Source: Lytechinus pictus
Lineage: Eukaryota
Direction: 5' to 3'
Length of the DNA stretch: 64,000 bases
NCBI RefSeq assembly: GCF_037042905.1
Contig: NC_087250.1
Span: 13,456,001-13,520,000 of the forward strand
Below the pieces are notes generated by a model. That model was given only the letters and a program-made list of their open reading frames with translations, did no database searches and was not told where the DNA came from. Numbering within the stretch: position 1 is the first letter of the stretch; every line of letters begins with the position of its first letter. Of this stretch, positions 788-56,505 are shown piece after piece. The position numbers and the translations under genes are program-made.

Positions 788-3700
788 CAGGGGCGGATCC
801 AGATTTCGCCAAAAGGGGGGGGGGCGAAAAATATTTTCATCAACATTTTTCTCGATTGGCCGCTATAATCTGATTTTTTTTTGGTTTTTCAGGGGTTATT
901 CCTAACTAAAGACTGAAGTTTTAGTTTTTATTGTTATAAACAAGATAAGGTATCTCACGTGGTCTTAATATAATAACGATAAACGCCAACTCAAGGCTAC
1001 TGACAAATCATACACTATAATGCGAAGGAAAGAAACCCATCGTAATATTGAGTCATTGAAGGCAGATTTGGCTGAAGAATCTTGGCAAGATATTTATCTT
1101 GAACATAATGTTAATGACTCTTATGAAAGATTTTTGGACAAACTTCTTTATTATTACGAAAAAAATATGCCATTAATAAAAATTAAATCGAATAAAAAGA
1201 AGAGCAAACAACCTTGGATTACCCAAACTATAATCAAATCCATATTTACTAGAAATAGATTATATAAAATATCAATTAAATCGCCTACAACTGAAAATAT
1301 AAATAAATACAAAAAATACCGCAATAAATTAACATCAGTTATACGCCAAGCTCGAAAATCCTACTTTTCTGATAAAATTGAAAATAATAAAGATAATAAT
1401 TATACATTATGGAAATCTATAAAAGAAATTTTAGGTAAGAAAAAGGAAACATGTGATAACGTTAATTTCGTAGACAATGGTCAACAAATGCAAGACTCCT
1501 TTGATGTTGCTAATGCATTTAATAATTTCTTCAATAATATTGGCCCAAAACTAGCTTCAAAAATAACATCTAATGATGATGACTTTTCTGTATATTTAAA
1601 CGATGTTCCAGAACATTCTTTATTTTTCAATCCAACAAATACTAACGAGATTTTAGAGATTGTTAGGTCCATGAAACCGACTAAATCCTGTGGGCATGAT
1701 GGTATAAGTGTCTATCTTTTGAAAAAAATAATTTATTTTATAGCCTCCCCGCTTTCGCATATTTTCAATCGTTCTCTTTCTTGTGGTATTTTCCCCGATC
1801 TACTGAAAATTGCAAAAATAATTCCAATATACAAAAAAGATGATCCATGTCTTATCTCAAACTATCGTCCAATTTCTTTATTACCGGGTATCTCTAAAAT
1901 ACTTGAGAGAATAGTTTACAAGCGTTTATATTCTTTTTTGAACAGCAATAATTTACTGATTCCTAATCAATATGGTTTCAGAGATAATCATTCAACGGAC
2001 CTTGCACTTTTGCAATTATGTGACAAAATTTCTGATTCTTTATCTAAAAAGGAACACACTGTTGGTGTTTTTATGGATTTGTCGAAAGCATTCGATACCA
2101 TGGATCATCGCATTTTACTTTGTAAATTAATGAAATATGGAGTTATAGGGGGGTGGTTCTCGCTTGGTTTAAAGATTACTTAAGCAATCGACGCCATTAT
2201 GTTTGTTTTAAATCTAAATCATCTAATATTTGTACTTTAAAATGTGGAGTACCACAAGGATCTATTTTGGGTCCCTTGTTATTTTTGATTTATATGAATG
2301 ACATTGTGAATGCATCTAGAATATTAACGTTTGTTTTATTTGCAGATGATACAAATGTATTCTATTCACACAAAGACTTAGATATACTTGTTCCAACACT
2401 TAATTTAGAATTGAAGAAATTATCAATGTGGTTTAGAGCTAATAAGCTCTCTTTAAATATAAACAAAACAAATTTTATGTATTTTCAACACATTCAAAGT
2501 AAACACAAGTTTCTCAACAACATTTTTATAGATGATATTCCCATCACGGAAAAACAAGAAACCACATTTTTAGGTGTTTTGATTGATTCAAATTTGACTT
2601 GGAACAGTCACACTCGCAATATTTGTATGTTGACATCCAGAGGGATAGGAATCTTATATAGATTGAAATATTATATCTAAAAAAAGTCATTATTTATGCT
2701 TTACAATTCATTCATCTTATCCCACTTATCTTACTGCAACATTGTTTGGGGGTATAGTAGTAAGTCAAGAATAGAAACTATATTCCGTCTTCAAAAAAAG
2801 GCACTTCGCATCTGTACACTTTCACATTACATTGCACACACTAATCCAATATTTCACAACTTAAAGACATTGAAAATTGAGGATATTAACACATACCAAA
2901 TAGCCATATTTATGTTTAAATTTTCCACAAATACCATTCCAATTCCATTTCGCAATTTTTTTATCTATAACAAAGACATACATACTTATCCAACGCGTCA
3001 TTCAACAGATATCCACTTAACCAACCCCAGAATCTTACTCACTCATAAAACAATTCGCCACCATGGTCCAGATATTTGGAATGCCTTGCCACATAACATC
3101 AAACAGTCCGCGTCTCTTTTTTCTTTTAAAGCTTCATTGAAAAAGTTTCTTATTTCTAAGTATTCATAAATGTATCACCTGCACTCACCCACTAGCACTC
3201 ACTCGCACTTTAAAAAAAAACTTTATCTTGTCTCTCCCCATTTAAAATCTAAACTTTTATACTTTCTCTTTTGTGACATCATTTTATCGAATTCTATTCA
3301 TAACCTATTATTACGGTTCCCATGTAGCCCTCCCTCATGGCTGCTATTGTTTCAAGCAGTTACCTGCTTATTATAGCTGGCCCCTGCATTTTTACCCACT
3401 TTACTATTTTACGTGCTTCATTTATGTATTATTCAGCCTTATTCATTATTTATATTTTCGATTGTCACACAAAAATGTACTCATTTATGTCATTGTTATT
3501 GTATCATTCTATTTTCACTTGTTGATTTATGAATAAAATGCAGAAATTCCTGCAAAAAAAAAAAAAAATAATAATAATATGCGAGCGCGAAGTGTGAGCT
3601 CAAATTCTTTGATATTTTATGTCTTCAGACCTGAAGATTGTGAGCAGATTTTATAATCATGAACAAAGATAAGTGTCCAACTAAACAATGCGAGCGCGAA

Positions 3701-22954: not shown

Positions 22955-25900
22955 CGAAGTAGTAGTGGTAATAGTAGCAGCAGTAAGTCACAGTTGTAGT
23001 GGTGGAATAAGTATTAATAGTAGTAAAAGTAGTAGTAGTAGTAGTAGTAGTTGAAGGGGTAGCAGTAAGTGGTATTTGTAGTCACAGTAAAATTGAAGTC
23101 ATAGTAATATTATGATAGTGATAGCAGCAGTAGTAGTAGTAGTAGTAGTAGTACATATAAGTGGTATTTTTAGTAGTACTAGTAGTCGGTAATAGTATGA
23201 TTAGTGGTAGTAGTTGTAGTAGTATGTTACTGGTTGTATATTAAAGTATTAAGGTAGTGGTTTAATACTGCTAATACAGTGGTAGCTGTAGTAGTTGGAG
23301 TAATAGTAGTATGCAGTAGCAGTAGGTCATAGTAGCAGTAGGTAGTAGTAGTAGTAGTAGTAGCAGAAGTATAGTAGTAGTAGTCTTAGCCTTAGTAGTA
23401 GTAGAATTAGTAGCAGTAGTAGTAGCAGTAGCAGTAGTAGTAGTAGCAGTATTAGTAGGAATCATAGTTATAGTATGACAGTTACATGTATAGAAGAGGT
23501 AGTAGTTTAGTAGTCGTAGTAGTAGTAGAAGTAGTAGAAATTGTATGGTAGTAGTAGCAGTTGTAAATATTCGTTCTTCATAGACTGGTAGTCCTTCCAA
23601 ACAAATGGTCACTATCGCTGTTTTGAATCTTTCACAGGTACAACCGTTTTGCAAGGCATCCGTACTACGGAGAAACGGGAATGAATTCTGGTGTGATGCT
23701 GATGAACCTAACCAGAATGAGACAATTTGGTTGGACTAAGAAGATTGTTCCTATCTATCATGAATATAAACTCAAAATCACGTGGGGAGACCAAGATCTT
23801 ATCAACATTGTCTTCCATGACTATCCACGTGAGTAAAAGGGCGATATTCAAACTATTCCATGTCTAGTCGGGATATAGTAAATATATATTCAATGCTAGG
23901 GGGGGGGACATTGTAAAATCATTCTAAAAAACGTCCCTGATATAAACTGAAAATCACGTGGGGAGACCAAGATCTTATCAACATTGTCTTCCATGACTAT
24001 CCACGTGAGTAAGAGGGCGATATTTAAACTATATCATGTCTAGTCAGGATATAGTAAATATATATTCAATGCTAGGGGGGGCATAGTAAAATCATTCTAT
24101 AAAACTTTCCTAATATAAACTGAAAATGACACGGGTAGACCAATATCTAATAAACATTTTGTTCCATGGACAATCAAATGAGTAGAAGGCGTAGGGATAG
24201 TGATTTTTCGTTTTAATGGTAAATAAAATGGAAATTCTGTTTGGTTCTTATACTTTTCATGCAAAAATTCATGGAATTCACCTTTGCAAAATGGAATTCA
24301 GGTTTTTGCTGTGTACATTGACAAAAACTTAATTTCCATTTTTAGATCAAGTTGAAACACAAGTACAGATTTTCAGAAACGGAAAAGACCATTTTTTGAA
24401 ACAGAAAATACTGTCTCTCAAGGACGGATTAATACTTCATGTATTTCCTGCCTAGTCAGGATGAAGTACAATATTTTTACTGTTAATAATAATTAGCAAT
24501 CGGTCAAACCACTGTTTGTAGGTTGACCCTGTTAGTTTGTGTTGCTGGTCAATCATATATATATGCCGACCAACGAACATGTAATGGTAACCCACAACCT
24601 CTGACCTTTGACCTTTCTACAGAGGGGCTGTTCCCGTACACATGTGAATGGAACTATCGACCGGACCACTGTATGTACTCTAACAACTGCCGTCGGACAG
24701 ACGAGCACGGGATAGCCGTTATACACGGCAATCGAGGCGTCTATCATAACGAAAAGCAGCTCGCATTCAGAGCTATCTATGAGTCTTTTAGAGATGTAAG
24801 TTGAGTTCTCTCACCCTATTCATAATATGATTATTTTTACTTTCATCAGCTGAAATTAATTTATTTTAGCATAATTATGCTTCAAAAAGGTACTGCTATA
24901 ATTTTGGGGAAGAAAAACAAAAGGTCAAAAGACAAAAATTTAACTTTTGTTAAATTTTGGTATGAAAAAGAATAAATGCAATCAATCAATCTAAGAAGTA
25001 TATAAGAAATTCATAAAATAATAAAATACAGATTACAACCTACACTATTATCATGCCAATTTTCATGGTTGAATCAACTCCCCCTCCCCTTGTAATCTCA
25101 GCTGCCACTCACGCAAACGCCGTGAACACCGCTCATGATGGCAGTCTCCTGCATTCGTTTAAACTGATATTTTCTTTCTTTCAATTGAATAATGCTTCTT
25201 GTTATTTATTTTTCATTGCTTTATTATGACTATTGTTGAATTGTTTTGTAAAGCTTAAATGTATCACCTTTGTAGATGTTATGTTGCATATTTATCTTGA
25301 ATGCAGATATGAAATAAAATCAATCAATCAATCAAAATTGGCATGATAATAATATGGGATTTAATATGTATTTTATTGTTTTATGAATTTCTTATGTATT
25401 TCTTTGTTATTTTTTGCCAAATTTATAGCAGAACCTTTTTGAAGCATAATTATGCTAAAATCAATTAATTTCAGCTTATAGTAGGATTTAGCTGTACCTA
25501 AGCAAGTTTAATCATATCTATATTATAATCATTGGTGTAGCTAGGACAAAGTTAATATTGGGTATGTTGTGTAGAGGCGAACCTGTGAAGTGTGGCTATT
25601 CAGTGAAATAAGAAAGTACAAGTCCTATTCTATTCATATCTAAATTTCTAGGCAGGAATTTATTTCTGAGATTTGTGGGGATTTTCACTGCGATGCCATG
25701 CAAATTGTTGATAAAATGCGCATGTACTGTAGCAAAGCAAACGACAGCTGCGCGCATTTAATATGCAAATGCGCGGTCAGTCAAACCGTAGTATCGGCAC
25801 TTCATTGACTTTGCAAGTGACAAAGCGATACGTTTTGACTGACCAGGTTTCATGACATTTGCTTCGGCGACAATTACTCCGATGGAAAATCTACACATTA

Positions 25901-38616: not shown

Positions 38617-40865
38617 TTGTAACTTGTCCCCTCTATTTACTTTTTAACTCTACTTGTAACTCGTTCTCTCTTCTTGTTACTCATTCTCTCTTCTTGTAAC
38701 TCATTTCTCTCTTCTTTTTTAACTCGTTCACTCTTGTGACTCATTCCCTCTTCTAGTTACTCATTCTCTCTGCTTTTTTACTCGTTATCTATTCTTGTAA
38801 CTCGTTCTCTCGTATTTCATTTCTCTGTTGTAACTCGTGCTCTCTTCCCGTAACTCATTCTCTCTTCTTGTAACTCATTCTCTCATCTTGTAATTCATTC
38901 TCTCTTCTTGTAACTCATTTCACTCTTCTTTTTTTTACTCGTTCACTCTTGTAACTCATTCCCTCTTCTTGTTACTCATTTCTCTCTTCTTGTAGCTCAT
39001 TCCCTCTTCTTGTAACTCATTCTTTTTTCTTGTGATTCATTCTCTTCTTGTAACTCATTTCTCTCTTGTAACTCGTTCTCTCTTCTTGTAACTCATTCTC
39101 TCTTCCTTTTTAACTCGTTCACTCTTGTAACTCATTCCCTCTTCTTGTTACTCATTCTCTCTTCTCTTTTACTCGTTCTCTATTCTTGTAACTCGTTTTC
39201 TCGTATTTCATTTCTCTGTTGTAACTCGTGGTCTCTTCTCGTAACTCATTCTCTCTTGTAACCCATTCTCTCATCTTGTAATTCATTCTCTCTTCTTGTA
39301 ACTCATTTCTCTCTTCTTTTTTTTACTCGTTCACTCTTGTAACTCATTCCCTCTTCTTGTTACTCATTTCTCTCTTCTTGTAGCTCATTCCCTCTTCTTG
39401 TAACTCATTCTTTTTTCTTGTGATTCATTCTCTTCTTGTAACTCATTTCTCTCTTGTAAATCGTTCACTCTTCTTGTAACTCATTTATTCATTCTTGTAA
39501 CTCGTTCTCTCTTATAACTCGTTCTCTCTCCTCATAACTCGTTCTCTCTTATAACTCATTCCCTCTTCTTGTAACTCATTTCTCATTTGTAAATCGTTCT
39601 CTCCTTGTAACTAATTTCTCTCTTCTTTTAACTCCTCTCTCCTTGTAACTCATTCCCTCATTTTGTAACTCATTCACTCTTTTTATAACTCATTCTCTCT
39701 TTTTGTAACTCATTCGCTCTTTGTTGTAACTCATTCTCTCTATTTGTAACCCATTCTCTCTTTTTGTAACTCATTCTCTCTTCTTGTAACTCATTCTCTC
39801 TGTTTGTAAATCATTCCCTCTTTTTGTAACTCATTCTCTCTTGTAACTCCTCTCTTGTAACTATTTCTCTCTTCTTGTAAATCGTTCTCTCTTCTTGTAA
39901 ATCATTTCACTCTTGTAACACATTTCTCTCTTCTTGTAACTCATTCTCTCTTTTTGTAACTCATTCTCTCTTCTTGTAACTCATTCTCTCTGTTTGTAAA
40001 TCATTCCCTCTTTTTGTAACTCATTTCTCTCTTGTAACTCGTTCTCTCTTCTTGTAACTCATTCTCTCTTCCTTTTTAACTCGTTCACTCTTGTAACTCA
40101 TTCCCTCTTCTTGTATCTCGTTCTCTATTCATGTAACTCATTCATTCTTGTAACTCATTCTCTCTTGTAACTCATTCTCTCTTTTTGTAACTCATTCTCT
40201 CTTCTTGTAACTCCTCTCTTGTAACTATTTCTCTCTTCTTGTTAATCGTTCTCTCTTGTAACTCGTTATCTCTTCTTATAACTCGTTCTCTCTTCTTGAA
40301 ACTCGTTCACTCTTCTTGTAAATCATTTCACTCTTCTTGTAACCCATTTCTCTCTTCTTGTAACTCATTCTCTCTTTTTGTAACTCATTCCATCTTCTTG
40401 TAACTCATTCTCTCTTCTTGTATTAAACTCGTTCTCTCTTGTAACTCTTTCCCTCTTGTAACTCATTTCTCTCTTGTAAATCATTCACTCCTCTTGTAAC
40501 TCATTTCTCTCTTGATAATCTTTCTCTCTTGTAACTCTTTCCCTCTTGTAACTCATTCTTCTTTTTTACTCGTTCTCTCTTCTTGTAACTCATTTCTCTC
40601 TTCCTGTAATTCATTCTGTCTGTCTTGTAACTCATTTCCTCCTTTTGTAGCTCAATCTCTCTTATAACTTTCTCTCTTCGTTTAACTCGTTCCCTTTTCT
40701 TGTAACTCGTTCTCTCTTCTTGTATTAAACTCGTTCTCTCGTCTTGTAACTCGTTCTCTCTTGTAACTCGTTCTCTCTTCCTGTATCTCGTTCTCTTTTC
40801 ATGTAACCCATTCCCTCTTGTAACTCGTTCTCTCTTGTCGTAACTCGTCCTTTCTCGTTACTCAT
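38617..40865. repeat. ~2.2-kb minisatellite, 17-21-bp unit TTGTAACTCATTCTCTCTTC, with ~388-bp higher-order duplication
   Basis: Roughly 100 variant units; diagnostic variants recur at 38801/39191 and 38993/39381. Confidence 0.95.
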
Positions 40866-41261
40866 TCCTTGTTCCCCTATTTGACAAATTTCCACGTCTT
40901 CCTAAGACACTCCCACGACTTTAATATCGCTCGTTCCTTTTGACTCATTCCCATAATCATATGTTTAATAATGCCCAACATTAACATACGTCGAGAGAGA
41001 ACTCGTGACACTGATCAGTTGGGTTATTAAGAGGCTTCTGAGAGTGGGGTTTGAATTTGAATTTATTAATAAACTTCATTCATATGGCATGAATATTTTG
41101 TTTTAAAATATATACAATGATAACATAAACAAAATCATTCATAACTGTATGTCGTATAAATCAGTAATACATAGTTGGTAATTTGAGGGATCAAATCTTT
41201 TATTCTCAAATACAAAAACAAAGGAATATAAAGAAATGTTAGATTCATGAAAATGTCTTAA

Positions 41262-41834
41262 AGGTCAAGTCCACCCTATAATATAAAGAGAAATACAAAC
41301 TAGCATAACGCTGAAAATTTTATCAAAATCGGATGTAAAATAAGAAAGTTAAGACATCTTAAAATTTTGCTTATTTTTCACAAAACAGTGATATGTACGA
41401 TTCAGTGACATGCAAATGAGAGAGTCGATGATGTCCCTCACTATTTTTTTTTCATTGTTTGAATTATACAATATTTCATTTTTTTACAGATTCGAAAATA
41501 AGGAACAACTTGACTGAAAAATATAGTATTAAACAATGCTCATTCCAAATGTACAGGGAGGAATAAGTTGTTGTTTCACTTGACAATGAGGAGAAAATTA
41601 GAATATTTCATATAACAAAATACCAAAAAAATAGTGAGTGGATGACGTCATCAGTCTCCTCATTTGCATACCGACCAGAATGTGCAAATAACTGTTTTGT
41701 GAAATTAAGCAAAACTTAAAAATGTCATAACTTTCTCATTTTACATCGGATTTTGATGAAATTTTCAGTGTTGTTGCCTGTTGAATTTTTCTATTTTTAT
41801 TCAAATCAACATTTTGTTGGGGTGGACTTGTCCT
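41262..41834. mobile_element. Intact K1 Kolobok-like MITE
   Basis: TIR AGGTCAAGTCCACCC, TTAA TSD. Confidence 0.9.
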
Positions 41835-42048
41835 TTAAAGATGTCAAAATAATATTTGATAACGAAAACATTTATGTTTATCAATAGAGCTGAAAATCAT
41901 GTCAATCATGGGTAATCAATATTGTTGTTTGGGTGCCATATGCCGATTTAGGGTAATTGCATGTACCTTCACTGATGACACATTTCTGTAGAAATAAAGT
42001 GAAACGCGATTAGTATCTTCGATCATGGATGCAAAATGTCATTGAATA

Positions 42049-43647
42049 CTATACCATTGAATACCAATCTTTTCTTATGATCTGAATACTGTTGCCGTCA
42101 CAGACGATTATCTTCCCAGATGGAGTCATAATCACTTGCGACAACTCAAGATGTGTCAGTCTATCATTATCACTAACCAATCTCCTTGATAAGCACAGGG
42201 TTGCTACACGTCTCCTCTTCGACCCACTCTTCGTCGTCGCGTATTCGATCCCACACGTCTTGTGTTCCTTACCAGATGTAATAACGTAGAGGGCGTCTGT
42301 CAGTGGATCGATGCAGGCACTTCTTATATTATTGACGAAGGAGATTTCTTTGTAAGACCCTCCCCTCTCGAACTTCAAGACCGTGCAGTGGTTTGATGAC
42401 AACTCTGCCAAGATAATAAGACCTGATGAAACGACGCCACGTACAAGATCACTAAAAGTAATACGCCGTTTGGTACTGCCATCATCGGGGTTGATGAAGT
42501 ATACATTTCCCTGACCCCACTCGGCGGCAATGATAAGCCCTTCTGGATCCACAGCAACATACACCCAAGTATCATCCAGCGTGTTGTTTCGTGGTATGAC
42601 GAAGTCATTGACCAACTTCCAGTGTTTATCATACACGCTGATGCATCCTATCAACGATTGTCCCAAAGCAATGGCCTTGCATCCAGTCCGTCTCTTTCCG
42701 CACACGATCTTCCCATCGGGCAAAGACGCAGAGGAGACAACACAGGACTGTCCTCCGTCCTTAATGACTGGATCAATTCGCTTGGTGTTCGTATCAAGTA
42801 GATACGTGTGCATGCTCCCAACTTCCCAGTCGGTGACCAGCACCTTCGAAGAGCCGACGCAGCCTACAATGGTTGGATATTTCAATCTATCCATGACATT
42901 GATTTCCTCCACAAGCCTCCAATCCCCATTGTACCTGTCGACATCGATCCTTCCATCATAGCTGCTATATCCAACACTCCTGACAAATTTCACGCGCGAC
43001 ACTCTCTGTCTGATACGCTTCACCGCATCCATGTCAAAAGACATCTTCAACGCATCAGTAATCGCTCTCTCCAAATTAATTGCATCTTTCACTTTTGGTC
43101 CGCACTGCCTCCCAAAAGCATCAAGTTTTTGTTGAGCTTCTTGAAGAACTCTTCCAGCATCCTGAGCCGACCTTTCTAGTTCGGCTATCCGTGGTTTGAT
43201 CACGTCCATGATCGTTTCAAGTTCCTCACCACAATCTTGACGCATTTGTTCTACCGGAGCACGTCTCAATTCAGAATCTTGTCGTCTGATTTTCAACAAC
43301 ATTCTATGTCTCTTCTCATTGTTCTTGCTAATCTTGTCATCATTCTTCCGAAGTTCTTGATTCATCGCCCTAATCTCTTCAGTCTTTTCCCGTATGCCCT
43401 CCTCGATTTTTCGCTTCTCCTTGATAATCTTGCCATTCATCACGTCAAATTCGTGATTAATTCTCTCAACCTCTCTATTCTCCCCTTCCTTCTCCAGCCG
43501 AACCTTCTTGTTGACTGTTGAGTCTACTTCATCATGAAGAGCTTTAAAGTGTTCTTCGGTAGCAAATCTGAATTGGCGTATCATTTCTTCGAAGTGTGTG
43601 CATTCGTGTCTCTTGGCGAGTATTCTCTCTTGCATGATATCATCCAT
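42049..43647 (-). CDS. 532-aa coiled-coil + beta-rich (probable NHL/beta-propeller) protein, TRIM-like C-terminal architecture without visible RING/B-box
   Basis: Uninterrupted ~1.6-kb ORF, GC-richer than its flanks. Acceptor TTTATTTTGCAG at 43666, followed by ACAATGG (strong context). About 210 aa of E/K/R-rich heptads, then repeats such as VAVDPEGLIIAAEWGQGNVYFIN, ACIDPLTDALYV and MTPSGKIIVCDG. Confidence 0.75.
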   Translation of the reverse strand: MDDIMQERILAKRHECTHFEEMIRQFRFATEEHFKALHDEVDSTVNKKVRLEKEGENREVERINHEFDVMNGKIIKEKRKIEEGIREKTEEIRAMNQELRKNDDKISKNNEKRHRMLLKIRRQDSELRRAPVEQMRQDCGEELETIMDVIKPRIAELERSAQDAGRVLQEAQQKLDAFGRQCGPKVKDAINLERAITDALKMSFDMDAVKRIRQRVSRVKFVRSVGYSSYDGRIDVDRYNGDWRLVEEINVMDRLKYPTIVGCVGSSKVLVTDWEVGSMHTYLLDTNTKRIDPVIKDGGQSCVVSSASLPDGKIVCGKRRTGCKAIALGQSLIGCISVYDKHWKLVNDFVIPRNNTLDDTWVYVAVDPEGLIIAAEWGQGNVYFINPDDGSTKRRITFSDLVRGVVSSGLIILAELSSNHCTVLKFERGGSYKEISFVNNIRSACIDPLTDALYVITSGKEHKTCGIEYATTKSGSKRRRVATLCLSRRLVSDNDRLTHLELSQVIMTPSGKIIVCDGNSIQIIRKDWYSMV

Positions 43648-43909
43648 TGTTTCTTTGGGGATGAGCTGCAAAATAAAAACAGAATCGGAATATGATGTCT
43701 TAATTAAAGGGAGCGAACTAACCGAAAGTGTGTATTGTCTCTCATTGAATGATACGCATTCAATGAGAGACAATACGGTTTACTGACGGTTGGTCTATTA
43801 TCACTTGGTCTAATCATCAGATGGGTTAACAACATTCGGGCTAAACCCACTTAGTCCAATTCTCTTTTTGGTTTAATGACCACTTGGTCCAATATCCAAT
43901 TAGTCTGTA

Positions 43910-44988
43910 ATTCTAAGCACTTTTTGTAACTTAAACAGAATATATTATATAACTAAACAATTGATGCGAAGCGCGAGCGGAAAATTTCGAGATTTAGAAC
44001 TACAGGCACTTTATTAATTTCTACACAAAGAATGTAAAATTTTAATCAATTTTCGTAATCGTGAACAGGATATAGGTATATAACTAAACAATTGATGCGA
44101 GCGCGAGCGGAAAAAAATCGAGAGTTAGACCTAAAAACGGCACACTCTATTCATGTTTTGTAAGTCATGAAACGAATGAGTAATATAGGGGATCTTCCTA
44201 CATTAATAATGCGAGCACAAAATTTTTGATATTGTGATCTGAAACTGGATAATGATTTAAATAGAGAACAAGTTGACCCATCTGAATAAGCATACGCGCG
44301 CGTGTTTTATATTCTAAATACATCTTTTATCATGAAAATCAAAGCGAGCGCGAAGTGCGAGCTTAAACTATTTGATATTCCGATCTGAAAAAGAGTCAAT
44401 TTCAGCTCTATATTTCAAGCACTTTGAGACATACATCACTCGCCAATCAGAATGTCAGCCTGCAGCGCTATAGCTGATGCGTTTTCATAATCAGACATGA
44501 ACATGACGAAAAGGAATATTTTGAAACTTTATGAAACCACGAAAATAAAAGGTACCTGATAAATCAAAATTTGCGAGCGCGCAGCACGAGCAGAAATGTT
44601 AATATTCAGTTAATAAAACTGACATTTTTACAGAACACTTTTTAAAAACAATTTGTAAATCACACAAGATAATGAAAGTTCGATTTCCGCGGTGAAATAT
44701 GTTTTGTGGACTGACTTCCAAACTTGATATTTAAACTCCACATTGAACAAGATATAAAAATCAACTAGCAAGCAATGCGAGCGCGAAGCGCGAGCGAAAA
44801 TTTCATACAGCGCCATGAAAGTCTTCCCCTCATCTTATTTCATTCACTCGTCTTCCTCCTCTTTTTTTTTGCCTCTCTTTTCCCTCCCTTTTGCCCTTTT
44901 TTTTCTTTCTTTCCTTATTTCTTTTTTTGCTCCGCCAATGGGGGGGGGGGGGGGACGGGCCCCTCGCCCCGCCCTGGATCTGCCTATG
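43910..44988 (+). mobile_element. Third, 5'-truncated copy of the GCGAGCGCGAAGC-motif element
   Basis: Periodic motif; blocks shared with 20040-21750; ends CCCTGGATCTGCCTATG. Confidence 0.65.
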
Positions 44989-45148
44989 TATACTCTATCA
45001 TGTCTGAACAAATGAGCGCAATAGCATGTAACTTCGCGACACCGCGTTTGATAGAACCGAAAATGGCGAGAGAGAGGGGGGGGGGGCACACAAAGTCTAT
45101 GTGCACGATTTATGAATAACTTTAATACAAAGGGGGCTAGACAATTAA

Positions 45149-45655
45149 AGGGGAAGTTCACCTTGATAAAAATTTTGTTGTAAAAATAGCAGAAAAATAT
45201 CATGAAAATATTGGTGAAGGTTTGAGGAAAATCCGTTAAAGATTAAGAAAGTTATTAGAGTTCAAAGTTTTGTATTTGTGACGTACGTACGTCATAAACG
45301 AGCAGCTGCCCCATATGTTATGTAATATAAAATGCATGAATTTCGAATTTTTTATGGTTCCTGATGACTTAATTTTGCTTCCTATTCATGATCGGGTGTG
45401 AAATGATTTGTCTATTGATATACAAAAGGTACAGTGAAAACCATTTTCAATTTTCTGAGAAAATGACATTTCATTGATTTTTTACCATTCGCTATGTAGG
45501 AATGCGGCTCGCATATGACGTTACAAATCAAGTAATTGAAATTCTAATCCAACTTTTTAATTCTTTGATGAATTTTTCTCAAACCTTCAGCAGTATTTTT
45601 TATTATTTTTTCTACTATTTTTACAATAAACTTTTTGTCAGGGTGAACTTCCCCT
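45149..45655. mobile_element. Kolobok-like MITE
   Basis: TIR AGGGGAAGTTCACC, TTAA TSD. Confidence 0.85.
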
Positions 45656-46081
45656 TTAATTTTTGTCTCATTTTAAAGCTTGAGGTGATTAGTATGATAA
45701 TTTAACTCTCTTTACAATTTATTCCAATTAATTGATTTCAATTAGCAATAATTGATTTAAAAAAACTTCATAAAAACACCATAAAATCTCGCATAAGAAC
45801 AATTTATGACGTGATTTTTTTGGCTGAATTGAGACGTATCATTATGAAATTGGTGTCATTTGAAAGCTGGGTATGTATTAGCGGTGACAGTATAAGCTTT
45901 TATGCATATCAATTTGAGTCATTTTTAGATAAAATGAAAAAAAAATGATTGTTGAGAGGTGGTGGAAGCGGTACACATTACATGCAACTCTATGGGATCG
46001 TTGTATTGCTAGTATTAAACATGTGTAATTGTGGTTTCCTAGAGGCTGAAACTTTGATTTTGGTCTCATTTTATAGCTTAA

Positions 46082-46660
46082 AGGAGAATGAAACCCTTGA
46101 AACCAGCTGAATCCATATGAAAGAGAAAAATCAAAGAAACGTATTGTTGAAAGTTTGAGGAAGATTGAATGAATAATAAGAAAGTTATGAGCATTTTAAT
46201 ATTGAGATCACTAATGCCATGTAGATCCTCCCATTGGCAATGCGACCAAGATCTGTGATGTCACACTCGTACAACTCCCTCATTACTTTAGTACTTATTT
46301 CACTTATATTCTCACTTTTATAGAGTCTATCACAAGGTGAGGTGTTTATGAGAGGACAAGTACAGAGGTTTCACAACATTATATCATTGATGAATAGTTT
46401 GTCATATGATTAGCATGAGCAAAAAAAGATGTTTTGGGGTATAGTTTCAGTGTCCAAAAGGGGAGAGTTGTTCATCTGTGACATCATAGATCTTGGTCGC
46501 ATTGCCAATAGGAGGATCTCCATAGCATTAGTGATCTCGACATTCAAATGCTCATAACTCTTCTATTGCTAGTCCTATTTTACTCAAACTGTTGTTGATC
46601 TTATTCTTTGATTTTTCTGCTTTCACAAAATCTAACTTGCTCCAAGAGTTTCATTCTCCT
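46082..46660. mobile_element. Kolobok-like MITE family K2
   Basis: TIR AGGAGAATGAAAC, TTAA TSD. Confidence 0.9.
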
Positions 46661-46759
46661 TTAATATAACGTGTATGATGATACACCTCTATACACATCA
46701 TATAATTATTGATTAATAATGATTAGAAGATATAATAAATAATAATGAATAGAAGATAT

Positions 46760-48505
46760 AAGGCAATTTGGAGAAATTGCAGGCCCTAAACCTAATTTAA
46801 CAAAAACTCATGCAATGTCAATTTTCCCTCAAGATGAAACCTTTAGAGATATACAATGGACAAATGATCCAGTGAAATACCTTGGTATTTTTGTAGGTAC
46901 AGATAAACGTAAAAAAGAAAGAATGAATTGGGATACAAAATTAGTTAAGATTCAATCTATAATGAACATCTGGAAAATGAGAAATTTAACTATATTTGGC
47001 AAAATAGTAATACTTAAATCTTTGATAATATCACAAATTGTTTACCCTGCAACTGTAATACACGTGCCAAAAAACCTGGCACGGGAGTTAGAGAAAATGA
47101 TGTATACGTTTATTTGGGGCTCGAAAAAAAAAGATAAAACGAAATGTTTGTATTAATTAATTTCATAAAGGAGGATTAGATATGATAGACTTAAATTCAA
47201 AATTATCTTCATTAAAAAGTTCACGGATTTCAAAATATTTAAAATACGATGATCAACCATGGATGTACTTGTTTAAATTTTGGACAGCAAAGATACGACC
47301 TATGCCCTTGTGTCTCCGTTTCAATTGTTCGAAAAAAGATATGTTAATTGTATGTATGAAAAAGCAAATTCCATCCTTTTATACATATCTATTATGCTCT
47401 TTGTATGACACACGAGTTACTGAATATCACAATATTAATAGTAAAAAACACGAAATTTTATGGTATAACAGTCATATAAAATTTGAAAGAAACCTTTTAT
47501 ATTTCAATAGATGATCCGACCACAATATCTTTTATGTTCACCAATTATTACGTAATCATGCCTGGAAACCTTCCGAAGAAATTTTTGAAATAGTAGCTTG
47601 CAAATCAATTTTAGTCGAGTTTGAATATTCAAAGCTAAAAAGAGCTGTCCCAGCTGAATGGACTGCCAAATGTGACACCTTATCTTCAAAGCTTCCAGAA
47701 GTTCTTTTTTAAATTAGTGGAGGAGATATTGTAAATTTAAAGAACATGAAATCAAAAGATTTTTATGTTTTACTTGTTACCAAAAAAAAATCAGATCCAC
47801 ACATTATACAATACTGGCAATCTAAATTAGGATTACCAGTAAACTTTGAATAGCAAAATGTTTTTAATTTCAAACTAAAGTATTTAAAGTATAACAAGAT
47901 TCGACAATACAACTTGAAAATGCTTCACAATCTATTACCCTTTAAATTCAATTTATGTCGTTGGAAATTAGCTAATGACACATCTTGTATGTTCTGTGAA
48001 GCAGAGTTTTGTTCATATTATGTTAGAATTGTCAATTTAAACATAAATTTCAGAGAATTCGTTATCTTTATCCAAAAATTGGCAACAGGATTACGAAACG
48101 ACGTTGTTCATTGGATACAAAATTCACGATCGCAAGTTTACGTTGGTTAATTTCTTTATGATATTTGCAAAGTATGCAATGTACAAATACTATGTCATGT
48201 ATAAGATGCAAGGAAGAGCTTTTAATATATATTCAATTTGGTATGAGTTCAAGAAATAGATACTTTTTTATGTAAAATGGCGATTTAAATCCAATGTTCA
48301 TTTGATTCAAATGTTCAAAGAGCTTTAACCCTATAGAGAAATTTCATCTTTATTACATTTTAGATTAAATAGTTGATGTCTATTACATGTTTATATGTAA
48401 CTTGTTTTGTAACTCCACACGCACTGTGCCTCGAAGGAAATTGTTAAAATTAGAACGGAATATAAAGAATAAAGTAACTCTAAACGAGGAAAAGAAAAAA
48501 AAAAG
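46760..48505 (+). mobile_element. Decayed 5'-truncated L1/Tx1-clade LINE (RT C-terminus + Zn-finger region)
   Basis: VKYLGIF, NW..K..KI...W..RNLTIFGKIVILKSL, GGL.MIDL, LHNLLP..CMFC; several stops and frameshifts; AATAAA and A-rich tail. Confidence 0.85.
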
Positions 48506-48738
48506 ATTTATTATAAAGGGCTCAGCAGCCAATCATAATCAAGCTTTCCATGTTAGTTGCTATAATGGCAAACTTACAACAGTTGTAAGTCCTTTACGAA
48601 ACGGGGGCCTCGGAGGTCAAAGAAAATGACCTGAGAGTTGTGCGCTTCATTAAAATAAATACTGTCATTCTTTTACAATCAAAGATCCAACCATATTAGA
48701 TTATCGTTTTTTCCCAAAGTAATGTAATTCAGAACTTA

Positions 48739-49054
48739 TACCTCGGTCACATTTGCTCTACGGCGGCCGTACGGCAAGTCGGAAACAGCCGTACGTTTAA
48801 CAGTTTTGTACACATTTGCTCTACGGCGGCCGTACGGCAAGTCGGAAACAGCCGTACGTTTTAACAGTTCTGTACCAGCTACATGTAGGTGGTTTGAATA
48901 AAAATGAATAAAAATGAAAATGAATAAACGTCGACTGTTTTGTACCAGCTACATGTAGGTGGTTTGAATAAAAATGAATAAAAATGAAAATGAATAAACG
49001 TCGACTGTTTTCGACTCGCCGTACGGCCGCCGCAGAGCAAATGTGACCGAGGTA
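48739..49054. mobile_element. Harbinger-like MITE with two internal tandem duplications
   Basis: ~40-bp TIR TACCTCGGTCACATTTGCTCTACGGCGGCCGTACGGC; TTA TSD. Confidence 0.85.
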
Positions 49055-50012
49055 TTAATATGTAAATGTGTTTATTAATTTCTCTTTGTATATATGTTTA
49101 ATCGTTTTATGATTTCTGTGTACTGAATCATTTATTTTTATTATTATTTATTTATTTCTATTTGTTTATCTCTTTATTATATATCATTTTTTATTCATAA
49201 AAATGTACTTATAAAATGGGGCCGTCACCCTACAAGCTCTGCTTTTTAGTTGGTCTCCTTCCCTTTCGATGTCATGGTATTATTGAATTATAAAAAATGC
49301 TTTAAATGTTATATTTTGTAAATATGTATATTGAACTATCCGCATTGTAAATGTAAAAAGATTGAAAGAGGATATAAATGAATTGAATTGAACCATTATA
49401 ATCTCCCTCTCTCATTTCATTGTTTTGAGATGATATGATGGTATTTTTAATCAGGGTTATCATTAATGCAATGCCAACAACTTATCATTGTAATAATTGA
49501 TAATGATGGGGCATGATAAATAATCATCGATATAATATTAATAACAACAATTACCATGAAACTAAAGTATCACTATAATTATTATGATTATCAAGGTTGT
49601 TATTACAATCCGGGCCTGGAAACTTTAAAATTCTTGTTAGTGGTTTGGGCTTGGGATGGTAATAGGCCTATATTATCAATGGGGAACGGCTGGGCTTCAA
49701 AATTTAGAATTCAACAAACACCACCCCGTTACGTGAGTCGCAGACACACATGGCATTAAATTCAATACTTGTGACCTTCGGAACTTTAATTGCAATGAAT
49801 GTGTAATAACTAAAGCCTTATTATAATAGCGCGTAGTAGAGTCTAGATCTAGAGCGTGGTGTCATACCATAACCATAGTCATAAACGCACCGACACCTAT
49901 ATAAAATGAAATCCTGTAAGATTGCTATACGTTTAATAACATACGGGACAGGAAGTGTAATAATAAAAATAACATACCCACTAGTCTCAATTAAAACAAC
50001 TTTGAAACTTAC

Positions 50013-50080
50013 GTTAAGGTTCCGGGTGTTCCACGAGTGATCAACTGCGCCTGTTTCGATGATTTGCTGTGTGTGCTGAA
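50013..50080 (-). other. Putative non-coding first exon of the minus-strand TRIM-like gene
   Basis: Perfect donor AAC|GTAAGT (minus, intron starts at 50012); no ATG in the exon; non-repetitive island; TF sites immediately upstream. TSS position approximate. Confidence 0.45.
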
Positions 50081-50089
50081 GCTTGAAAG

Positions 50090-50119
50090 GGGGACTTCCC
50101 CATTTTTTGATGACGTAAT
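50090..50119 (-). promoter_or_regulatory. NF-kB site (GGGGACTTCCCC) plus adjacent CRE/bZIP-type site (TGACGTAA)
   Basis: Exact match to GGGRNWYYCC at 50091-50100 and TGACGTAA at 50111-50118, just upstream of the putative first exon. Confidence 0.45.
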
Positions 50120-50234
50120 GCTTCATGACGGATGGTGGGAGAGGGCGCCTCCCCATCCTCCGTACTCCGTTAGGATAGGGGGGGGGGGTGTTTAGGACCG
50201 GATCCAGGATATTGACCAGTGATCAGAGGGCGAT

Positions 50235-50830
50235 CAGAGAAACAAAAAAGAAAGAAGTAGAAGGGAAGAGGAAAGAGAGGGGAAAATGTGAAGGAATATT
50301 GAGAAAAAGAGAAGAAAAAATAAAGGAATGTGAAAGGGAGAGAGGCTAGAAAATAAGGAAAGAGAAAAATGAGAAGGGAGAGAAGGGAAAGGGAGAGGGG
50401 AAGAAAAGGGAAAGAAGGTGGGTGAACGAGAATAAGAGAGAAAAAGAAAGAAGGGAATGAAAAGGAGAAGGGAAGGAGGGGAATAAAGGAAGGGGAAAAA
50501 GAGAAAATAAGAAATGGAAGGTGAGCGGAGAAAGGAGAAAAAAAATAGAAGGAAGAGAAGAGGAGAAGCAAAAAGCGAAAAATGAAGGGAAAAGGAAAGA
50601 GGAAATACACATGAAACAAGAAAAGGAGAAGGGAGAAAATGGAAAAAGAGAAAGGAAAGAAAAGGGGGAAAGGAGACAAAGAGAAAGGAGAAGAGAGAAA
50701 GGAAGGAGAAAAAGAGAGAAGGAAAAAATGTTGAAGAGTGAAGGGAAAGAAAAGGAGAAGGGAAATGTAGCGCGGAGATAAACGAAAGGAGGGGGAGGGA
50801 TAGAGAGGAGAAATTAGCAATGGGAGAGGG
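50235..50830. repeat. Polypurine (GA-rich) low-complexity tract
   Basis: ~600 bp of almost only G/A on +. Confidence 0.9.
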
Positions 50831-54628: not shown

Positions 54629-56505
54629 ACATCACTCCTCGCAAAGTTCCCTTCTGCAGACTTTCAACCTGAAGAAAGTAAACTGAGCAGTTTGCCATAG
54701 ATCTGGATACATATCTTCAGAACCTCCCTGCACTCCCTACTCATTGCGACACATTTTTAGAGCTGCTGAAGAAATCATCAAGGAAGAATATTCCACAAGA
54801 ATGCCGTACAAGCTATACTCAGGGCCGGCAGAAACACCATGCAGATTCGGATCCTTGGGAAAGACTCTACAAAGTCCCAATCTAGGTCCCAAGTTACCGC
54901 CGGCCAAGTGGCCAACCAGCTTCTAGTGAACAGCCAAGGTAACCCTCATAATCACCCGCGACGATCCAACCTAAAAGTGTGCGGACAGCCTGCCAAGAGT
55001 CATCTGAGTTCACAAGACCTTTCAGCATGAACGACTTGTGCAATGCTATCAAAGCAATGAAGATCAGCAAGGCAGCTGGAGCTGAATTGGATGATGTCCT
55101 CGATCTGTGAGCAGATAAAACATCTTGGACCTGTTGCACTCCAACGGCTGCTTGACATGCTAAACTACTGTCTGAGTGAAAGCACAATGCCAAACTTACG
55201 GAGGAAATCAAGGGTAGTTGCCTTACTCAAGCCAGGCAAAAAACCAGCCAATGCAAAGAGCTACCGGCCCATATCTCTGCTTTGTCACACATACAAGATC
55301 TTTGAAAGGCTCCTACTCAACCACATTGCTCCCTTGGTGAATGAGCTCCTCATTCCGGAACAGGCAGGATTTAGGCCAGGAAAGTCCTGTACTAGTCAAC
55401 TGCTGAATCTGGCACAGTACATTGAAGATGGTGGCTTCGAGAAAGGGTTGATAACTGGAGCAGCCTTTGTTGACCTCATTGCAGCTTATGACACAATCAT
55501 CTAATACTCACAAGGAAAGTCTTTGAGATGACAAAGGAAGGCTTAAGCTGACACAGATGATTCAGAGCATGCTCTCAAATCAGCAGTTTTTGTGCATCTC
55601 AGTGGTTTCAGTAGCAGATGGGTGACACACAAAAGGTCTCCCACAAGGAAGAATCATCGTCCCACTCTTTAGCATCTACACAAATGACCAACCAATCCAC
55701 CAAATAATGAGAGCTACCTGTACGCTGATGACATTTGCATTGCTTCAAAGAAACAGTCCTCTGAAGAGATGAAAAAGCACTCAGCAATGCTCTGGTAGGC
55801 CCGACTCCTTACTACGCTGCCAATCATCTCTGGGAAAATCCAGAAAAAACCCAACTCAGTGCTTTTCACCTAACAAAACAGAGATGCAGACCAGTAACTA
55901 AGGTTCAGATGGTATAGAAAATGGTTGGAACACACCAGTAAGCCAATCTACCTTGACGTCACCCTAGACAGTTCCCTTACCTACAAAGACCATGTTTCCA
56001 AGACAAAGGCTAAAGTTGGAGCAAGGAACAGCATCCTGAAGAAGCTTGCCAACATAAAATGGGAACAGATGCCAAAACCATCCATGCGACAGCTCTTGCT
56101 CTATGCTACTAGACTGCTGAGTATGCAGTCCCCATCCGTTTTAGGTCATCACAAAGATTGATACAGCCCTGAATGCTGCTTGCAGAGCAATTACTGGCTG
56201 CGACAAAACAAGAGCAGATGATCTCTACCTACTGTGTGGTATTGCCCATTCACACATCAGAAGATGTCAGCAAAGGTGGAAAAAACAAGCAAGAAGATCA
56301 CCCTCTTCATCCACCCTTTAACTATGAACCTACCAAAAAGAGATTCAAAACAAGATGTAGCTTCCTTCACTCGACTGAATCCCTTGATGGCTCTGCTCAC
56401 AATCAAAGGGTCACCCTATGGTCCAACCATCTACAGTCTGTGACGCACAAGCTCTCCTATGGACTTAGCGAATCACTTCCTAGGTTCAAGTGAGGAATGT
56501 GGAGT
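54629..56505 (+). mobile_element. Decayed Vingi/Ingi-clade LINE RT fragment
   Basis: SYRPISLLCHTYK, EQAGFRPGKSCTSQLLNL..IEDG, GAAFVDL.AAYDT, GLPQG, YADD, RNSILKKL..KW; many frameshifts. Confidence 0.85.

Follow-up and report, generated by a model that had tools for sequence, protein, structure and literature searches.

The TRIM-NHL proteins (TRIM2, TRIM3, TRIM32, TRIM71, Brat, Mei-P26, Thin and NHL-2) carry a coiled coil and, after it, a six-bladed NHL-type propeller, whose top face in Brat and LIN-41 is electropositive and binds RNA. B-boxes drive the higher-order assembly of TRIM proteins, TRIM coiled-coil dimers are known as solved structures, and TIR and Death domains recruit adaptors. 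For LGP2, MyD88s and the truncated isoforms of TRIM5, regulatory action and inducibility are established. Partial loss of the RING/B-box/coiled-coil (RBCC) arrangement after duplication of a TRIM gene has been described for the TRIM-like genes Malin (NHLRC1), BSPRY and FSD1 (PMC3503706). Here we describe a gene on the minus strand of a 64,000-nt stretch of the sea urchin Lytechinus pictus (NC_087250.1, positions 13,456,001 to 13,520,000; hereafter the window), which encodes a 532-residue protein with a coiled coil and a predicted propeller but no recognizable B-box, TIR or Death domain in front of them, an arrangement we call headless.

The order of coiled coil and six-bladed NHL-type propeller is shared with the TRIM-NHL proteins, from which this protein differs in having no RING, B-box or filamin domain, a single coding exon, and a top face that, as counted from strand order, does not appear electropositive. 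The RBCC elements of a TRIM are represented by the coiled coil, with RING and B-box absent; whereas Malin keeps the RING and drops both B-box and coiled coil, this gene retains only coiled coil and propeller. It resembles a truncated TRIM-NHL scaffold, yet is not a TRIM by definition. The likeness to LGP2, MyD88s and truncated TRIM5 is one of analogy, a ligand or assembly module being kept and the signalling head gone, and the sequences are unrelated. The gene belongs to an echinoid family of uncharacterized LOC genes (Lytechinus, Strongylocentrotus and Diadema) with which it shares a homologous coiled coil and propeller, a nested position in the tree and the lack of a RING; it differs from that family in being headless, alone in its window and undiversified on its top face among orthologues. 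The new points are a conserved headlessness and an unvarying face inside a hypervariable family; the gene structure is ordinary. A main-text literature search returned no paper on the gene identifiers and none describing the family, term searches of PMC11688612 and PMC8195603 found nothing on the family, and the supplements of PMC12616046 (five files) and PMC13736523 (seven files) contained nothing on the gene.

The coding sequence and its two predicted modules lie as follows in the window.

42049..43647, minus strand: coding sequence (CDS), 532 amino acids (exact match in NCBI and UniRef)
43000..43644, minus strand: coiled-coil helical region, residues 2-216 (AlphaFold2; alignment)
42070..42921, minus strand: six-bladed NHL-type beta-propeller, residues 243-526 (AlphaFold2, Foldseek, VIA)

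An AlphaFold2 run on an 18-row alignment (predicted local distance difference test score (pLDDT) 82.7, predicted template-modelling score (pTM) 0.72) gave helices at residues 2-85, 92-180, 186-200 and 206-216, and the six-bladed propeller. The top solved folds in Foldseek were the NHL domains of Brat and TRIM2 (E ~6e-9), with Mei-P26, Thin and TRIM71 as further close NHL folds; VIA aligned 248 residues with the NHL domain of Mei-P26 (Z 20.9, root-mean-square deviation (rmsd) 3.0), and the TRIM-NHL domains as a group gave Z 20-21 and rmsd 3.0-3.4 over ~250 aligned residues. Sequence identity to the solved NHL domains is just 11-16%, the designed Pizza6 propellers tie with NHL domains on Z, and the Pfam NHL score of 16.3 (E 0.0098) is below the cut-off of 20. 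The family profile matches the B-box/coiled-coil structures of TRIM28, TRIM25 and TRIM5, and in the Atlas a RING/B-box cluster from echinoderms has a propeller resembling this one (TM-score 0.70), consistent with a TRIM-NHL ancestry. A coiled coil plus six-bladed NHL-type propeller is the predicted architecture, and the coiled coil and propeller-like repeats that the original prediction, made from the letters of the window, had read into this exon are supported by both the AlphaFold2 model and the structure searches. In the alignment the coiled coil begins ~15 residues into that of the family and carries a 21-residue insert.

The family comprises 68 clusters at 50% identity, and the 532-residue protein matches B-box paralogues at E-values down to 1e-91. 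The original prediction had stressed a RING-less protein with no ligase; the domain is indeed absent, also by a separate pattern search, but Pfam found a RING neither in the 532-residue protein nor in any of the 68 family proteins scanned (for one protein, five of eight families were listed). Since RING-lessness is family-wide, we rejected RING loss as the distinguishing feature of this gene, and the "no ligase" logic does not single it out. What does distinguish it, as judged by profile searches, is the loss of the B-box head. Pfam placed a B-box in 11 of 18 and 32 of 50 family proteins, and a hidden Markov model (HMM) of the B-box head matched 43 of 53 full-length relatives; the same HMM had no match in the 532-residue protein and nothing significant in the six frames of the window (best E 0.34). 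The ten relatives without such a head were four from this clade, the pair P0030/P0035, the TIR-headed P0042 and three others. An upstream exon that splices a RING or B-box onto the gene, which the original prediction had set up as its own counter-case, did not turn up: neither the head HMM nor Pfam revealed a RING, B-box, TIR or Death exon in the 20 kb upstream, where 37 of the 41 minus-strand open reading frames (ORFs) of at least 55 residues were scanned with Pfam for these four domains and the other four (low-complexity or tandem-repeat) were left out. There was no further family paralogue within the window, and a scan of JGI metagenomes for related loci gave 62 pattern matches, none of them confirmed.

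Other members of the family carry different heads. In P0042 (699 residues) a TIR-like head replaces the B-box, with Atlas TM-scores of 0.70-0.76 to TIR domains although Pfam misses it, so signalling heads do occur in the family; P0046 (955 residues) combines B-box and propeller with an extra ZU5 domain (Pfam E 4.4e-5).

Headlessness is shared by the orthologues. An older L. pictus model of the gene, LOC129263326, is 98% identical to the 532-residue protein; L. variegatus LOC121417639 (529 residues, 89% identity) and the S. purpuratus orthologue LOC105446627 (517 residues, 55% identity) start at the same headless position, as does an ENA protein of 518 residues. Fragments covering fewer than 240 profile positions were excluded from the 70-row set of family proteins. 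In a quick tree the headless clade (seven rows, SH-aLRT 100) fell within a 32-row clade whose remaining members, like the outgroups, mostly bear a B-box. Based on the shared start and the position of this well-supported clade among B-box bearers, we infer that the B-box was lost from a B-box-bearing ancestor before the split of Lytechinus and Strongylocentrotus, and that the headless form was retained. That split dates back tens of millions of years. A second headless clade, P0030 (S. purpuratus LOC105436811) and P0035, stands at the base of the same expansion; on this tree it may or may not share one B-box loss with the gene described here.

We compared the propeller faces with the top face assigned by strand order, not coordinates, and left out P0003, which is an earlier model of this gene, as well as P0008, whose propeller is identical to that of P0007. 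Among 22 paralogues of the B-box clade the most variable columns were mostly on the d-a and b-c loops, and in all 231 pairs, which share ancestry and are not independent, identity on the top face was below that of the rest (mean -0.22, maximum -0.07). The Lytechinus and Strongylocentrotus headless orthologues, by contrast, were equally similar on the top face (76/115, 0.66) and on the rest (0.66), an equality reached by none of the 231 pairs. The two Lytechinus headless orthologues scored 0.92 against 0.94, compared with 0.60-0.75 against 0.79-0.95 for the six closest B-box pairs between L. pictus and L. variegatus, and in columns called hypervariable from held-out halves the headless orthologues reached an identity of 0.54 versus 0.23. 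The headless pair P0030/P0035 was intermediate (top-face excess -0.05). Across six headless rows 69 of the 115 top-face positions were invariant, including W274, R319, R320, W361, Y363, W377 and R403. From these alignments it is a safe statement that the headless gene has left the diversifying regime, and it probably binds something constant.

The gene itself, its leader and the motifs next to it are laid out as follows.

50111..50118, plus strand: putative cAMP response element (CRE)/bZIP-like motif TGACGTAA (sequence; such a site in 13 of 5000 local shuffles)
50090..50101, plus strand: putative kB-like motif GGGGACTTCCCC (sequence; kB consensus in 826 of 5000 local shuffles)
50013..50071, minus strand: probable leader exon, non-coding (59 extra X13 letters and depth 1.27; contigs cannot show the start)
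43666..50012, minus strand: intron, 6.35 kb, high-copy repeats throughout (GT..AG ends; read depth profile)
41814..43665, minus strand: exon 2, with 18 nt of 5' untranslated region (UTR), the entire CDS and a 3' UTR of 235 nt or more (X13 and X1 contigs)
41796..41801, minus strand: candidate polyadenylation signal, the first AATAAA past the stop, within a repeat (sequence)

The acceptor, the ATG in strong context 18 nt further on, the intact ORF, the GTAAGT donor and both motifs all lie where the original prediction had placed them. A polypyrimidine tract and TTGCAG end the intron at 43666, the start codon is at 43647 at an exon offset of 18 nt (A at -3, G at +4), 532 uninterrupted codons lead to the TAG at 42049, and the G of the donor is at 50012. 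The protein is letter-for-letter identical to entries in NCBI and UniRef, so that the gene is already annotated, though uncharacterised, and its model in the databases lacks any coding exon further upstream. Four transcript runs were mapped onto 41200-50240. An X13 contig (1911 nt, zero mismatches) and an X1 contig (850 nt), which come from two studies and span 41814-43665, both end precisely at 43665 and continue with 59 and 13 extra 5' letters, respectively; the acceptor is therefore in use. The gene is real, intact and spliced at 43665, and a pseudogene or artefactual ORF is ruled out by this splicing and by conservation in three species.

The leader exon is probably present and its donor at 50012 probably used, based on depth arithmetic: X13 has a depth of 1.27 across the bin 49958-50240, the amount that 58 letters of its contig would contribute at the contig depth of 6.2 (58 x 6.2 / 283), and the bin 49656-49957 has zero depth in all four runs. 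Use of this donor, as originally proposed, thus fits the depth of X13, although no row joining 50013 to 43665 is among the 15 of 200 contig rows listed. The call is also to be read against the ten GTRAGT sites, the 50012 donor being one, on the minus strand within 43700-64000. The exon had been called ATG-free, which holds between 50102 and 50013 (zero ATG) but would fail if transcription began further upstream, where in-frame ATGs stand at 50126 and 50156. Throughout the leader region 50013-50156 (minus strand) the reading frame of the CDS stays open; a start upstream of these ATGs would add 44 or 54 residues, among which a zinc-finger pattern is absent. Similarly, the surroundings described as free of repeats are so only over ~49650-50240, the intron otherwise being packed with high-copy repeats in the read depth profile.

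As a member of the family without B-box, TIR or Death domain could cap the assemblies of relatives or compete for their partner, we favour, with a probability of roughly one in three, the reading that this is a headless dimer with one fixed partner that modulates, and likely dampens, the signalling of its headed relatives. The coiled coil would mediate dimerisation and the unvarying propeller face would bind one fixed partner, so that signalling by B-box-, TIR- or Death-headed relatives would be modulated, most likely dampened. Lacking the B-box, the protein would form no higher-order assemblies and would not signal, which is a guess by analogy with LGP2 and MyD88s; by the same analogy it would cap the assemblies of its paralogues or vie with them for the partner that acts downstream, and feedback induction of the gene would come from its kB/CRE-like pair. 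A fixed-partner regulator of the family is likely, rather than a variable sensor. For the decoy or dominant-negative action of the original prediction, weak support comes from a modelled complex in which a paralogue from L. pictus supplied its B-box2/coiled coil: the score was 0.35 against 0.00 for the best control, with 49% or more of the contacts shared between runs and a partner pLDDT of 62 or higher.

Counted from the most 5' of the bases inferred to be transcribed, the kB-like motif lies 19-30 nt and the CRE-like motif 40-47 nt upstream, the true start itself being only inferred, and the two occur together in 3 of 5000 local shuffles, although the pair was picked post hoc. NF-kB control of the gene is a hypothesis.

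Several observations weigh against the dampening regulator. Our mark for complex scores was passed by 51 of 78 solved pairs and by 2 of the 108 that were mismatched; at scores of 0.60 or less, however, only 5 of the 78 solved pairs passed, and so did all 4 passing mismatches, so that a pass at the 0.35 level is more often wrong than right as support for a heterodimer; moreover, given that TRIM coiled-coil dimers are among the solved structures, the score may reflect likeness. The coiled coil is just 25-30% identical to those of the B-box paralogues, which argues against easy heterodimers. The 231 comparisons of the face are not independent, as stated above, and a B-box-bearing pair from two Diadema species was equally unvaried (top 0.94, rest 0.94), so that orthology alone may explain the frozen face; the Lytechinus branch is also long (0.6 changes per column), and the gene is thus not ultra-conserved. 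The kB consensus by itself is compatible with chance: the window holds 5 matches versus 3.5 expected, and the local probability is 16.5% (shuffles of the local 164 nt); the kB-like site, moreover, occupies the position expected of the core promoter. With respect to expression, the S. purpuratus orthologue LOC105446627 yielded 24 raw reads from 15 control coelomocyte samples and 22 from 14 samples treated with ultraviolet B (UVB) (supplement of PMC13043383; Mann-Whitney p 0.86, unnormalised counts), and is close to silent in these cells whether UVB was given or not, unlike the TRIM-like genes that are strongly UVB-induced according to the text of PMC13043383. The single-cell rows of the same paper flag it as a marker of cluster 8, a weak one (adjusted p 0.034), and as UVB-changed in red cells, but at 0.09% versus 0% of cells, too sparse for use. 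A search of sequencing runs for the gene gave 16 matching rows, of which 5 contained half or more of its words, with no RNA run recorded among them; the uneven shares within study P1 (0.89 against 0.10-0.16) are no evidence of induction. Two raw RNA runs, X17 and X19 (~6% sampled, 1.2-1.3 Gb each), had zero depth on both the coding exon and the leader, which suggests that expression is low or restricted. PMC10250714 contains one row for the gene identifiers, with a thyroid-hormone response that was not significant, and our search of literature and supplements found no bacterial, lipopolysaccharide (LPS) or double-stranded RNA challenge data for the gene.

Some of these points are as well accounted for by a non-immune role, which we regard as a tentative but serious alternative. 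Here a dispersed copy outside the tandem cluster, having lost its head, would have been recruited to serve, in a limited set of tissues or stages, as an adaptor or scaffold; the motifs would be inherited or incidental, and the face would be conserved as that of a stable 1:1 orthologue outside a birth-and-death cluster. The lack of a paralogue in the window, the unvaried Diadema pair, the near-silence of the S. purpuratus orthologue in coelomocytes with no UVB induction, and the diverged coiled coil all fit such a history, which is set back by the co-occurrence of kB-like and CRE-like motifs beside the leader exon (post hoc, as noted) and by the family itself, some of whose members are TIR-headed and whose face varies in the way typical of immune receptors.

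We consider it unlikely that the gene encodes an invariant sensor, whose conserved face would bind a constant microbial or damage ligand and which would signal positively by coiled-coil pairing with a headed paralogue or adaptor, as a helper and not a decoy. Its anatomy would be identical to that of the dampening regulator, and the invariant top-face positions and the weak heterodimer score, which may be likeness, suit it equally; however, no family member has a known ligand, and expression in immune cells is very low for the S. purpuratus orthologue.

A translational regulator that binds RNA through its NHL top face, as Brat and LIN-41 do, appears improbable. Its nearest solved folds (Brat, Mei-P26, TRIM2 and TRIM71) include several bound to RNA, and the whole propeller is basic, with an isoelectric point of 8.5-9.1 in all seven headless rows. 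We looked for a strongly basic top face as in RNA-binding NHL domains and rejected it: the net charge of the face, again from strand order, is -1, the median of the family (62 rows), which weakens a Brat-like role, as do the low identity to NHL domains and the equal Z of Pizza6.

Least probable of all, an exon coding for a B-box, TIR or Death head, lying upstream outside the window or diverged past recognition, would be alternatively spliced onto 43665 in phase 0 and make the headless form one isoform; the frame is open between the acceptor and the ATG at 43647 and the junction is missing from the contig rows listed, but database models in three species begin at the headless position, the extra 5' letters of X13 match the leader exon by depth, the 20 kb upstream show no head-like ORF among those scanned, and a search for longer forms gave a single protein, an apparent 7tm_2 and RVT chimera, which is weak evidence.

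Elsewhere in the window, a plus-strand neighbour gene, which by its motifs looks like a glucoside xylosyltransferase, includes a 176-bp tandem repeat (2.3 copies; 23763-24168, plus strand) in which the 3' portion of a coding exon is duplicated along with the GTGAGT donor that follows it, leaving spare donor-like sites downstream; the short exon peptide had no Pfam or PDB match. Just past the 3' end of the headless gene lies a 2.2-kb minisatellite (38648-40846; 20-bp unit, ~114 copies). Fragments of long interspersed nuclear elements (LINEs) with RVT_1 matches were found at 969-3169 and 55061-55504 (both plus strand), and a further one in the intron (46749-48150, plus strand) was judged by eye, with no Pfam RVT match.

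The parent family resembles an unstudied, fast-diversifying intracellular recognition repertoire, whose variable paralogues are hard to study singly. A conserved, isolated, headless member in a tractable urchin would allow clean knockout and tagging, and a partner that is likewise constant should be recoverable by pull-down with its constant face. Should the gene be both kB-induced and inhibitory, it would show that the family signals in immunity with built-in feedback; should it not, it is an ordinary domain-loss paralogue, already annotated as uncharacterised. At the far end of what these results could mean, and unlikely in our view, is an urchin cytosolic receptor system in which diversified NHL propellers can exchange B-box, TIR and Death heads, and in which this gene would be the dedicated, NF-kB-induced feedback regulator, the one member to have shed its head and frozen its face on a constant partner. 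If that were true, the gene would be to a receptor family not yet described what LGP2 is to its own, and would offer the best way to learn what that family binds.

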